This document shows positions 1,454 through 4,027 of a DNA stretch of 11,873 nucleotides, in pieces. Positions within the stretch are counted from its first letter, which is position 1, and every line of letters starts with the position of its first letter. Where the stretch lies: the NCBI GenBank assembly GCA_965205655.1, contig CBDBIJ010000050.1, forward strand, positions 1-11,873, given 5' to 3'. The notes under the pieces were generated by a model, which was given only the letters and a program-made list of their open reading frames with translations, made no database searches and was not told the DNA's origin. This stretch comes from Candidatus Latescibacterota bacterium (GTDB taxonomy: Bacteria > Latescibacterota > UBA2968 > UBA8231). Position numbers and translations under genes: made by a program.

Positions 1454-2269
1454 CTAATTCTTTTGCTTACCTACCGCGCCCTGAATGACCGACTCCGCGG
1501 CCTTCGGACTCAAGAACCTCAAACCCAGTAGAGCTTTGAGTTTTGACGGAATGACGAGCTCGCGCTGCCGCTTGCCCATGGCCTTCAGTACGGCGCGGCA
1601 GGCATCTTCCACCGAAACCGCATTTTTGCTGTGCTTGCGCGATGACTCCCCGAGCTCTCCCCCATCCTTGCCGAAGGCCCGCTTCCTCAGGTCGGTTCCG
1701 GCCAGCCAGTGAGGCAGCACGGTCAGTATATCCACACCACTTCCCTTCAACTCCATCCTCAGCGAATCGCAGAAGCCCTGTAGGGCGTGTTTGGAGGCGA
1801 CGTAGCCCGTGTGTAACGGAACCGGAATCTTGGCCTGGATCGAGGTAATGGCCACTATCATCCCGGCGCTCTGCCTGAGGTGAGGCAACGCATAGTAGAT
1901 GCAATTGACCGCCCCCAGATAGTTGACGTCGGTGAGCCGTCGAAAGATGTCGATGTCCTCGACCTCTTCGAACGACGTCCACATGCTGATGCCGGCGTTG
2001 GCCACCAGATAGTCGAGGGCGCCGTACTCCGCCACGCACTCCACGACTAGTCGCTGGCAATCTCCGGGCTTCGTTACATCGCCGATGACGGCCAGGGCAT
2101 CGGCACCGAGATCCCGACATTCGGCGGCAACCGCCTCCTGCTCCTCTTCCTCGGGCGAAAACAGGGTCAATCTGGCTCCCCGACCGGCGAACTCGCGCGC
2201 TAGTGCGGCCCCCAGACCGGACGAGGCGCCGGTTATGACAACCGACCTGCTTTTGAAAACGTCAGCCAT
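1454..2269 (-). CDS. Classical short-chain dehydrogenase/reductase, 11beta-HSD1/DHRS7B-like; candidate alkyl/acyl-DHAP reductase
   Basis: TGASSGLG glycine-rich motif, NAG, catalytic Ser in IVAITSIQAK, YVASK (YxxxK), then HALQGFCDSLRMEL. Starts 15 bp after the AGPS stop on the same strand. Confidence 0.93.
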   Translation of the reverse strand: MADVFKSRSVVITGASSGLGAALAREFAGRGARLTLFSPEEEEQEAVAAECRDLGADALAVIGDVTKPGDCQRLVVECVAEYGALDYLVANAGISMWTSFEEVEDIDIFRRLTDVNYLGAVNCIYYALPHLRQSAGMIVAITSIQAKIPVPLHTGYVASKHALQGFCDSLRMELKGSGVDILTVLPHWLAGTDLRKRAFGKDGGELGESSRKHSKNAVSVEDACRAVLKAMGKRQRELVIPSKLKALLGLRFLSPKAAESVIQGAVGKQKN

Positions 2270-2284
2270 ACTCGGTCACAGTTG

Positions 2285-4027
2285 CTACTGATCTGCGAAT
2301 ATCCCGTTGCTGATTCCGAAGACATTGTCCGGATCCATCGCCCTTTTCGTCTCCCGCAGGACACTCATGGCGCGCTCGGTCTGGATCTGCGGTAGAAAAG
2401 TGTGCCGGATCTTCCCGACCCCGTGGTGATGGGATAGCGAGCCGCCGTTGTCGAGGATAACCTGCCTAAGATGGCGCTCTATCTGGTGGTAGACGTCGTC
2501 CGGTTTTTCCAACCCCTTCCCCGACAGCCCCATCGTGAAGTAGATGCAGACACCGGTATGATATGTCTGCGTGACACGGTACGACAGATACGGCTTCCCC
2601 CGAACTCCGTGGGCCTGTGCCTGGTCCGCCAGCGTCCGCTCCACGGCCTGCGTCAACTGGTGAATCCGGTTCCAGGGTACTGATGTCTCGAAGGTTTCAC
2701 CGAGAATTTGAAACTGATTGAAGAAATCCCTGATGTAGGCGATCGAAAAGGTGAGCATGTATCCGCGCTGCCCGTTCTTTGACCCACCGCTCACGCCGCC
2801 GTGCTTCCTGGCAGCTCTGAATATGACCTTTTGCTGGTACGCCACCTCTCGTCGCGTGCCCTCCATGACGATGGTGCAGGCGGCGATCTGATACGGCTCG
2901 AAGCCTTTGATCTTCAGCAGTGCGAACTTCTGCAGCCTGGTCTCTATCCCCTTCCAGAAACCCGGCGCCGGCTTGAGAGCTTGGCTGAATCGGAACTCGG
3001 TGTTGTTTACCAGCCTGATGCTGGCCGGCAATGCGCCTTCGCGGCGCAGCTCTCTGAGAAACTCGATGCCTCTCGACAGATTCGGGAACACGAGGGAACC
3101 GTACCTGCGCGTTTCCGGCAGCGGGTGAACCTTGATGATCGCCTTCGTGATGATGCCGAAGTTGCCCTCGCTGCCGAAAAGGAGGGCTCTTGGCTGCACG
3201 CCGGTCGAGTTCCTCGGCGTCGCGTGCCTTGTCTCGATGTCGCCGGTCGCTGTGATCAGCGTCGCCTCGAGCACGATGTCCTCGATATTGCCGTACTTGT
3301 TCTTCTTCATGCCGCTGGCGTTGGTCGAGATCCAGCCGCCGAGCGTCGACAGCTCGACGCTGTCGGGATCGTGTCCGCACGTATAGCCCCGCGCCTCCAG
3401 CTCTCGTTCCAGGTCCTTACCCGATATCCCCGCTTCCACGCAGGCGACCAGATTCTCTTCGTCCAGCTCGACGATCCTGTTCATCCTTCGCATGTCGACG
3501 GAGACGATCATGCGTCGTTCGTCGGCGGGACACGCAAGGGCGCCGCTCACATTTGTCCCGCCCCCGTACGGCACCAGGCACACGCCGTGCTCGGCCGCCG
3601 CCCGCACCAACTTCCTCACATCTTTCTCGCTCTGCGGGTGCGCCACCGCGTCCACAGCTCTGGCGAGTGCGCCGATATAGAGGAGACGGTAGATTTCGTC
3701 CACGCTCAGCTGCCCGTGACTGTGGACGAGCCTGTCCTCGTCTCCGAAGGAGAGTTGACCGTTGGCGAGTCCATCATCCTCGAAGGCGTTCAGGAATGCC
3801 TCGTTCCGGTACGGCTCGGGCAGCTCTTGGCGCTCGACCTCGCTCACGGTTTCCTCGGGTCGAATCGGCACCCCGAGCATCTCCTCGGCAAACGGTATGA
3901 AGCCGGGCAGACTGTATCCCGCCAGTGGGTATCGGCTTCCGGTCATTCTCACGCTTCCGGGCCCGTCGAACTCGAACCGGGTGTCCGTGTACCCCCAGCA
4001 GTGGGGATATCTGTCCCCGTCGGACAT
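2285..4027 (-). CDS. agpS: Alkyl-dihydroxyacetonephosphate (alkylglycerone-phosphate) synthase, VAO/PCMH-fold flavoprotein
   Basis: AGPS motifs along the whole length: WGYTDTRF, HSHG, PYGGGTNV, GHDPDSVELSTLGGWISTNASGMKKNKYGNIEDIV, GSEGNFGIIT, PASIRL, GQRGYMLTFSIAYIRD, GETFETSVPW, RVTQTYHTGVCIYF, GGSLSHHHGVGKIR, DPDNVFG. The start is uncertain: ATG4027 (chosen) or ATG4048. TTG4111 in the ORF track looks over-extended. Confidence 0.92.
   Translation of the reverse strand: MSDGDRYPHCWGYTDTRFEFDGPGSVRMTGSRYPLAGYSLPGFIPFAEEMLGVPIRPEETVSEVERQELPEPYRNEAFLNAFEDDGLANGQLSFGDEDRLVHSHGQLSVDEIYRLLYIGALARAVDAVAHPQSEKDVRKLVRAAAEHGVCLVPYGGGTNVSGALACPADERRMIVSVDMRRMNRIVELDEENLVACVEAGISGKDLERELEARGYTCGHDPDSVELSTLGGWISTNASGMKKNKYGNIEDIVLEATLITATGDIETRHATPRNSTGVQPRALLFGSEGNFGIITKAIIKVHPLPETRRYGSLVFPNLSRGIEFLRELRREGALPASIRLVNNTEFRFSQALKPAPGFWKGIETRLQKFALLKIKGFEPYQIAACTIVMEGTRREVAYQQKVIFRAARKHGGVSGGSKNGQRGYMLTFSIAYIRDFFNQFQILGETFETSVPWNRIHQLTQAVERTLADQAQAHGVRGKPYLSYRVTQTYHTGVCIYFTMGLSGKGLEKPDDVYHQIERHLRQVILDNGGSLSHHHGVGKIRHTFLPQIQTERAMSVLRETKRAMDPDNVFGISNGIFADQ

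Follow-up and report, generated by a model that had tools for sequence, protein, structure and literature searches.

The window analysed here, 11,873 nucleotides long, is one entire contig (CBDBIJ010000050.1, called C50) of a Candidatus Latescibacterota genome (assembly GCA_965205655.1; 4.0 Mb in 150 contigs, 84% complete). Its minus strand carries an orthologue of alkyl-dihydroxyacetonephosphate synthase (AGPS; EC 2.5.1.26), followed after 15 bp by a gene for a short-chain dehydrogenase/reductase (SDR). The SDR is a conserved same-strand neighbour of AGPS and co-occurs with it genome by genome, so that a gene link proposed in a preliminary description of this DNA is now borne out. On the best reading, the SDR is probably an alkyl/acyl-dihydroxyacetone phosphate (DHAP) reductase. 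It is likewise probable, judging from gene content and arrangement, that the two genes are a co-transcribed pair covering the ether-forming section of a DHAP-based pathway that leads to 1-O-alkyl glycerolipids.

The predicted route is as follows. AGPS would act on 1-acyl-DHAP, replacing its acyl group by a fatty alcohol, so that 1-O-alkyl-DHAP is formed. The SDR would then use NAD(P)H to reduce the keto group at C2, and the product, 1-O-alkyl-sn-glycerol-3-phosphate, could enter ordinary phospholipid assembly via a PlsC-type acyltransferase; the SDR probably takes 1-acyl-DHAP too. The alcohol would be supplied by a fatty acyl-CoA reductase (FAR), a type of enzyme found in nearly all relatives and not found in the window genome. 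The likely DHAP acyltransferase is X649, a divergent protein with an HX4D motif, encoded on contig C31 of the same genome. The preliminary description had taken AGPS and the SDR for consecutive steps of a DHAP route. That would still be the most economical reading, because it accommodates the orthology of AGPS, the synteny and co-occurrence of the SDR, and the FAR and acyltransferase genes that neighbour AGPS elsewhere.

The AGPS and SDR genes

The features of the pair are:

1454..2269, minus strand: classical short-chain dehydrogenase/reductase, 271 aa, candidate alkyl/acyl-DHAP reductase (adh_short, NF004825)
2270..2284, minus strand: intergenic spacer of 15 bp that separates the AGPS stop from the SDR start codon, read from the sequence itself
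2285..4048, minus strand: AGPS orthologue (PF01565 plus PF02913, match to 4bby)

The AGPS open reading frame (ORF) ends in a TAG stop at 2285–2287, and three start codons can be considered. A TTG at 4111 gives 608 aa, consistent with the 610–616 aa of most homologues. With an ATG at 4048 the protein has 587 aa, as in its recorded form. The third option, an ATG at 4027, truncates a conserved stretch, YDxSDGxR, of the homologue alignment. Because this stretch begins upstream of 4027, the gene more probably starts at 4048 or 4111. The preliminary description placed both genes correctly, and the end that it gave for AGPS, 4027, is probably internal.

The protein has the two-domain VAO/PCMH flavoprotein fold, with Pfam matches to FAD_binding_4 (PF01565, E 1.1e-40) and FAD-oxidase_C (PF02913, E 9e-34); no NCBIfam model scores above its cut-off on this ORF. 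A sequence search of the PDB is more specific. Guinea-pig AGPS (4bby) matches with an E of 1.7e-152 and 512 bits, residues 17–581 of the query aligning with 95–656 of the chain, and Dictyostelium AGPS (2uuu) matches at 3e-85 and 290 bits. The best chain that is not an AGPS, a lactate dehydrogenase subunit, reaches 7.8e-27 and 97 bits. In the alignment to the guinea-pig chain, the arginine of SIRL, the tyrosine of CIYF and the motif SHHHG all find their counterparts, and the corresponding R345, Y503 and H540–H542 are invariant across 18 homologues. We take the arginine, the tyrosine and the HHH motif to have the catalytic role assigned to them in the structural literature. On this sequence evidence the flavoprotein is a genuine, full-length AGPS orthologue, and the identity first proposed for it holds, the end-to-end matches to 4bby and 2uuu lying far above those to other FAD oxidases.

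The SDR ORF runs from an ATG at 2269 to 1454, on the same strand as AGPS and separated from it by the 15 bp originally claimed. It matches adh_short (PF00106) with an E of 1.1e-47, and PF13561 and PF08659 also match. NF004825 (PRK06181, "SDR family oxidoreductase") scores 280.4 bits against a cut-off of 215, with residues 3–269 covering positions 2–266 of the 268 in the model. The classical motifs are present, that is, the Rossmann motif TGASSGLG from residue 13, ANAG, and S143/Y156/K160, all invariant in an alignment of 37 sequences. No N-terminal extension or membrane anchor is found, the Rossmann motif beginning at residue 13 of 271. The AlphaFold2 model (pLDDT 94.6) opens accordingly with a strand at residues 9–13.

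Sequence matches of the SDR in the PDB are generic, at about 1e-23; 11β-hydroxysteroid dehydrogenase type 1 (11β-HSD1) is among the best, at about 1e-22, and many SDRs score alike. In Foldseek, the top-ranked rows for the model are 11β-HSD1 chains (TM-score 0.80–0.90, 26–29% identity, 261–272 alignment columns), and the match is full-length, C-terminal helices included. The likeness is one of fold, and there is no steroid context. We take 11β-HSD1 to be a near relative of the DHRS7 group.

Scans for transcription signals say little about the predicted co-transcription. Terminator-like matches within 1000–4400 number 4 against 1.9 expected, an uninformative result, and the promoter scan of the region was likewise uninformative. 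One minus-strand terminator-like match lies inside the 3′ end of AGPS (2419–2404); the 15-bp spacer holds none. A look for RNA runs that contain this DNA found none listed.

Synteny, co-occurrence and phylogeny

AGPS loci were collected with a profile of 18 homologues from contigs of one genome per species, and the best 80 of 528 confirmed relatives, a choice leaning to close relatives, were analysed. ORFs were called and searched with the window proteins, and neighbours within four to five genes were clustered. Three loci (L011, L028 and L031) end less than 300 nt after AGPS, leaving 77 assessable loci; in L028 the first 91 residues of the SDR are still visible at the contig end. An orthologous SDR lies downstream of AGPS on the same strand in 57 of the 77, as the next gene in 50, the second in 6 and the third in 1. 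The estimated gaps between AGPS stop and SDR start are mostly −23 to +100 nt. Because the pairing recurs in this way, the juxtaposition of the two genes is not due to chance. Such a neighbourhood survey had been called for when the pair was first described, and it finds the synteny in other genomes. By phylum, as named in the titles of the NCBI records (the real number of phyla is smaller), the assessable loci with the SDR are:

Latescibacterota: 36 of 37
Gemmatimonadota: 11 of 13
Planctomycetota: 1 of 3
Deinococcota: 1 of 1
Poribacteria: 1 of 1
Fidelibacterota: 1 of 1
Acidobacteriota: 1 of 1
unclassified: 5 of 5
Chloroflexota: 0 of 15

As a separate observation, two Gemmatimonadota-titled loci carry a gene weakly like PhyH (phytanoyl-CoA dioxygenase) after an AGPS of 65–66% identity (L019:3973–4848 and L042:4085–5218); both contigs end inside it.

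Co-occurrence was scored in 151 genomes of the window's phylum at E ≤ 1e-60 for AGPS and E ≤ 1e-55 for the SDR. The window genome (G000) is included in the totals and not in the tallies for the families, of which f1 is the window's own:

AGPS: 109 of 151 genomes (f1 59/63, f2 28/30, f3 19/19)
SDR: 104 of 151 genomes (f1 56/63, f2 28/30, f3 19/19)
FAR: 116 of 151 genomes
X649: 115 of 151 genomes

The genome lists and family tallies place all 104 SDR-positive genomes within the 109 that have AGPS; that is, the SDR occurs in none of the 42 AGPS-negative genomes of this sample. As to the genomes with AGPS and no SDR, the AGPS is divergent in G081 and G107 (48–49%) and fragmentary in G084 and G093. 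In G020 its place matches that of locus L050, where a 144-aa SDR remnant comes after AGPS. Most pairs lie on one strand within 2 kb (place tables). At least four genomes (G007, G078, G087 and G094) keep both genes far apart, and in five the two are on different contigs, AGPS usually at a contig end. Genus g11, represented by five genomes, has no AGPS of this clade and no SDR even at E 1e-25; it retains X649 and an ElbD-like FAR. Two genomes without either gene (G049 and G054) are not counted as losses, since their FAR-X649 contigs end where AGPS would be expected.

A second phylum, that of genome G153 and locus L076, gives a similar picture. True AGPS orthologues, with 53–56% identity, occur in 5 of its 61 genomes, and the SDR adjoins AGPS on the same strand in all 5. 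Two further weak AGPS matches there (29–31% identity) are other FAD oxidases.

The relationships among the SDRs were analysed with a FastTree phylogeny of 176 rows, namely 56 AGPS-linked SDRs (the window's included), 112 representatives (among them the Hyalangium protein P0424), 7 eukaryotic proteins and 1 IMG protein. Rows were limited to 240–345 aa, and linked ORFs outside 240–300 aa after trimming were dropped. The 56 linked SDRs fall in one clade with SH-like support of 99, which also includes 29 representatives of unknown context. The eukaryotic rows (Pharyngomonas, Acrasis, Planoprotostelium, Chlorokybus, Chara and two EukProt entries) lie outside this clade; so does the IMG protein named "SDR family protein 7B", in a tree that has neither DHRS7B nor Ayr1 among its rows.

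Three of the eukaryotic SDRs, from the heteroloboseans Pharyngomonas and Acrasis and the amoebozoan Planoprotostelium (P0325, P0411 and P0463), have 38–42% identity to bacterial SDRs of the wider family and are closer to those than to most of the eukaryotic proteins listed. A search seeded with the Pharyngomonas protein returned mostly bacterial SDRs, along with the IMG protein named above, and an Atlas search with the window's SDR returned generic SDR names only. Among 20 SDR matches with N-terminal extensions none is metazoan; they are protist, algal or unnamed.

The eukaryotic enzymes for alkyl-DHAP reduction are described as SDRs, including Ayr1, DHRS7B and Dictyostelium c2/c3 (PMC13256971), and as having low mutual identity (PMC13256971, PMC11225845). 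DHRS7B has an N-terminal transmembrane/mPTS segment (PMC13256971), which the window's SDR lacks. The label "DHRS7B/PexRAP-like" given to the SDR at first agrees with its classical motifs and its S/Y/K residues; as a statement of kinship it is not supported, the anchor being absent and the AGPS-linked SDRs forming a bacterial clade of their own. The SDR may work like DHRS7B, and we leave it outside the DHRS7B family.

Gene partners and alternative functions

Two further genes recur beside the pair. A FAR that has the two "male sterility" domains (PF07993 and PF03015) is encoded two genes upstream of AGPS in 20 loci, and in 17 loci X649, a protein of about 649 aa that belongs to no Pfam family, lies directly upstream. 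The order FAR, X649, AGPS, SDR is found in 16 loci; on a Trueperaceae chromosome (L053) the four occupy 3142–5016, 5016–6965, 6962–8740 and 8781–9587. A DAGK_cat/YegS lipid kinase comes after the cluster in 10 loci. The Fidelibacterota locus L076 has a canonical 258-aa PF01553 acyltransferase in the X649 slot, so that the order is FAR, acyltransferase, AGPS, SDR. By predicted activity, the recurring set of alcohol supply, acyltransferase, AGPS and SDR corresponds to the four activities of the peroxisomal route. In a Neomarinimicrobiota locus (L031), an HMG-CoA-reductase-family gene (4958–6133) and a PF01553 acyltransferase (6134–6880) lie upstream of AGPS.

X649 has an invariant PTHQSLxDH sequence (H449-x4-D, that is, HX4D) and further acyltransferase-like motifs. 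Its score against PF01553 is 13.9 bits, under the cut-off of 23, and a search of the PDB by sequence, with the single protein or a profile, gave no match; an Atlas search gave a weak acyltransferase lead only. The AlphaFold2 model (pLDDT 78, pTM 0.82) is helical over roughly its first 430 aa and ends in a PlsC/GPAT-like fold, and its nine best Foldseek rows are chains of PlsC, plant and human GPAT, and PatA (5kym, 8ia1, 1k30, 1iuq, 8e4y and PatA). The motif and the modelled fold thus identify X649 as a putative acyltransferase. In the window genome, X649 is at 6665–8623 of contig C31 (1450–3411 of locus L085), where its neighbours, a cyclase, a UvrD-type helicase and a GlmS-like gene, are unrelated.

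The form of FAR varies with the family. In f2 and f3 it is a stand-alone protein of about 540–560 aa encoded just upstream of X649. In f1 the FAR homologue is usually part of a frame of about 1400–1480 aa far from AGPS (e.g., G055:C1:1200886–1202481); these long frames presumably encode ElbD-like multidomain proteins.

Several observations weigh against the assignment of the SDR as reductase of an AGPS-based route. The SDR is absent from 20 of the 77 loci (15 Chloroflexota, 2 Planctomycetota, the Gemmatimonadota-titled L019 and L042, and L008); therefore either AGPS can pair with another reductase there or these homologues act otherwise. Most of these loci hold more distant AGPS homologues, of 50–57% identity, and their neighbours include beta-oxidation genes, a polyketide synthase and an unnamed 256-aa protein, among others. 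The sampled genomes are kin, and the counts are not independent events. At least one "Gemmatimonadota"-titled record (L030, from genome G151, which is the same as G103) groups with the window's phylum, whose other records are mostly titled Latescibacterota. A sample drawn as Gemmatimonadota proved to cover the window's phylum again and is not counted here. In the second phylum, 4 of 9 SDR-family matches (39–47% identity) are in genomes without AGPS, and so the wider SDR family is not exclusive to AGPS. In the AGPS operon of Myxococcus xanthus (see below), the third gene is of the NAD-dependent epimerase/dehydratase family, whereas the window's partner is a PF00106 protein with no PF01370 among its Pfam matches. 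Finally, no FAR was found in the window genome, 84% complete, with a FAR protein query, and PF07993 gave weak, generic NAD-binding matches.

Two long ORFs of the window genome came up as FAR candidates and were rejected. A 795-aa ORF on C126 joins a UDP-glucose dehydrogenase to an epimerase. A long PF01553 ORF on C149, considered as a FAR or ElbD-like gene, is an Aas/LplT-like fusion:

contig C149:678–4106, minus strand: 1142-aa protein in which an MFS transporter is joined to a PF01553 acyltransferase and an AMP-binding enzyme, resembling LplT-Aas of lysophospholipid recycling

What else might the SDR do? It might supply the AGPS substrate by reducing a fatty aldehyde to the fatty alcohol, e.g., after an aldehyde-forming acyl-CoA/ACP reductase. 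SDRs of this general type can reduce aldehydes, no FAR was found in the window genome, and the tight link to AGPS would fit a substrate-supplying role too. We nevertheless regard this as unlikely. Sixteen loci pair the SDR with a FAR that is itself alcohol-forming (Sterile C-terminal domain), which would make a second alcohol step redundant; the 116 phylum genomes with FAR include SDR-less ones; and the keto group of alkyl-DHAP would be left without a reductase, GpsA not being found in families f1–f4 either.

That the SDR acts on some unrelated carbonyl, be it steroid-like, 3-oxoacyl or other, and sits after AGPS through inherited gene order, is quite improbable. The nearest solved folds are indeed 11β-hydroxysteroid dehydrogenases, the NCBIfam name is a general one, related SDRs occur in AGPS-less genomes, and most of the evidence comes from related genomes. 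Against this, the pair is seen again in distant lineages, where its flanks differ, both genes are retained when unlinked and both are missing in genus g11, and lipid enzymes make up the rest of the recurrent neighbours (FAR, acyltransferases and, in 10 loci, the DAGK_cat kinase).

It is very improbable that the flavoprotein is a FAD oxidase or dehydrogenase of the same fold that makes no ether bond, the pair serving another oxidoreductive pathway, for although Pfam and NCBIfam place it in the general FAD_binding_4/GlcD-like superfamily, with no NCBIfam model above cut-off, and Chloroflexota homologues adjoin beta-oxidation genes, it scores 512 bits to a solved AGPS against 97 to the best oxidase, the match includes the AGPS-specific N-terminal region, the Arg, Tyr and HHH residues are conserved, and FAR and acyltransferase are the partners that AGPS needs.

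The alkyl/acyl-DHAP reductase is thus the preferred assignment for the SDR. Pfam and NCBIfam scans find no FAR or acyltransferase in the window, which holds the AGPS-SDR pair only, and at E 1e-10 the SDR is the one other window gene with homologues close to AGPS among the 80 loci. The neighbours include:

4210–6162, plus strand: B12-binding radical SAM protein with DUF4070, 650 aa, divergent from AGPS
6289–8070, minus strand: 593-aa protein with an N-terminal Rieske [2Fe-2S] domain (residues 7–101) and about 490 residues without a family
8074–8691, minus strand: TlpA/ResA-like thiol-disulfide oxidoreductase, directly upstream of the Rieske-domain gene on the same strand

The radical SAM protein is weakly like P-/C-methyltransferases and a "lipid biosynthesis B12-binding/radical SAM" model. 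It was considered as a member of the module and rejected; because none of the 80 loci has a homologue near AGPS, its link with AGPS looks local to the window genome. Downstream of the SDR and convergent with it is an 86-aa ORF without a family match. The other genes encode a sarcosine-oxidase-like flavoprotein, HspQ, a xylose-isomerase-like TIM barrel and a HAD hydrolase.

Known routes and the entrance to glycerolipids

AGPS as such is not new to bacteria. The AGPS operon of M. xanthus is reported to encode a FAR fused to an acyltransferase, together with a member of the NAD-dependent epimerase/dehydratase family that has no assigned role, and deletion of its AGPS shows a contribution to ether lipids (PMC13012113, PMC9131029). 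The steps around AGPS that lead to the alkyl ether lipid are called unknown in one of these papers (PMC9131029). Agps homologues are also reported in 67 of 92 Latescibacterota metagenome-assembled genomes from the Black Sea (PMC11868695) and in Latescibacterota, Poribacteria and Acidobacteriota genomes from sponges (bioRxiv 10.64898/2026.06.23.733905). The M. xanthus operon (MXAN_1676–1674) resembles the window's pair in being a bacterial AGPS operon with a nucleotide-dependent oxidoreductase gene as its third member. It differs in its FAR-GNPAT fusion, whereas in the window genome the SDR directly follows AGPS, the acyltransferase is on C31, and FAR was not found.

The mammalian route (FAR1/2, GNPAT, AGPS and DHRS7B/PexRAP, EC 1.1.1.101) is similar in having an AGPS orthologue with an SDR partner. 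Related bacterial genomes place a two-domain FAR and an acyltransferase before AGPS, so that all four steps are represented. The differences are that the bacterial genes are clustered, no organelle is involved, and X649 is not recognisable as GNPAT. The ElbB-ElbE/ElbD, PlsA/PlsR and Ger routes share the class of end product, alkyl or alkenyl glycerolipids. They differ in using no AGPS-type exchange on DHAP and in needing no alkyl-DHAP reductase (PMC11868695, bioRxiv 10.64898/2026.06.23.733905). With ElbD there is a further likeness, as ElbD-like FAR-containing ORFs of about 1400 aa occur elsewhere in most genomes of the window's family.

A literature search, with subscription papers and supplements outside it, found no paper that assigns a bacterial alkyl-DHAP reductase. 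In the text available, "DHRS7B" and "PexRAP" appear nowhere in the PNAS paper, and the sponge preprint (bioRxiv 10.64898/2026.06.23.733905) has neither "SDR" nor "short-chain dehydrogenase", its "reductase" referring to other enzymes. The preliminary description had set the module apart from the better-known bacterial ether routes and had named no characterised bacterial alkyl-DHAP reductase. The latter stands insofar as no published one was found; given the M. xanthus operon and the AGPS of other Latescibacterota, the module is less isolated than it appeared. What appears to be new is the assignment of the SDR as the partner of AGPS, for which no published counterpart was found.

The SDR may also bear on ester lipids. 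PlsY (PF02660), PlsX (PF02504) and GpsA (PF07479) had no match in the window genome, at its 84% completeness, and PF01553 matched only the Aas/LplT-like fusion and a PlsC-sized ORF of 258 aa. Neither PlsY nor GpsA was found in any of the 114 genomes of families f1–f4, whereas each was found in 29 of the 36 genomes from the remaining families of the phylum sample. Genomes that have them carry plsY and gpsA as adjacent genes; positive controls for these searches matched. X649 is present in 112 of the 114. Likewise, a search of the closed Trueperaceae chromosome that carries FAR, X649, AGPS and SDR gave no match to GpsA; the Fidelibacterota genome with a canonical acyltransferase in its cluster has GpsA. 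This distribution suggests that X649 replaced PlsY/GpsA, perhaps with DHAP as its acyl acceptor, and the SDR would therefore be needed for ester lipids as well.

Taken to its end, this would mean that X649 acylates DHAP and that the SDR makes all lysophosphatidate, for ester and ether lipids alike. That the DHAP route is the only entrance to glycerolipids in the window's class we consider possible and rather doubtful. Genus g11 speaks against the strong form, because X649 is found there without AGPS or the SDR. It also weighs against this proposal that glycerol-3-phosphate might come from other sources, such as glycerol kinase or other dehydrogenases. If it is true, these bacteria would build their membrane in the way that peroxisomes begin ether lipids.

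Alkyl-DHAP reduction is the sole step of aerobic ether-lipid synthesis without a named bacterial enzyme, and a small, soluble SDR whose occurrence follows that of AGPS from genome to genome and between phyla offers a concrete candidate that is easy to express. If the assignment is right, the SDR would round off, with FAR, acyltransferase and AGPS, a minimal set of bacterial genes for making 1-O-alkyl glycerolipids. In sponge, marine and sediment metagenomes, producers of ether lipids could be predicted more specifically than AGPS matches alone allow. The assignment would also inform the debate on a bacterial origin of the eukaryotic pathway, and it would bear on how lysophosphatidate is made in the window's class, whose genomes lack PlsY and GpsA.

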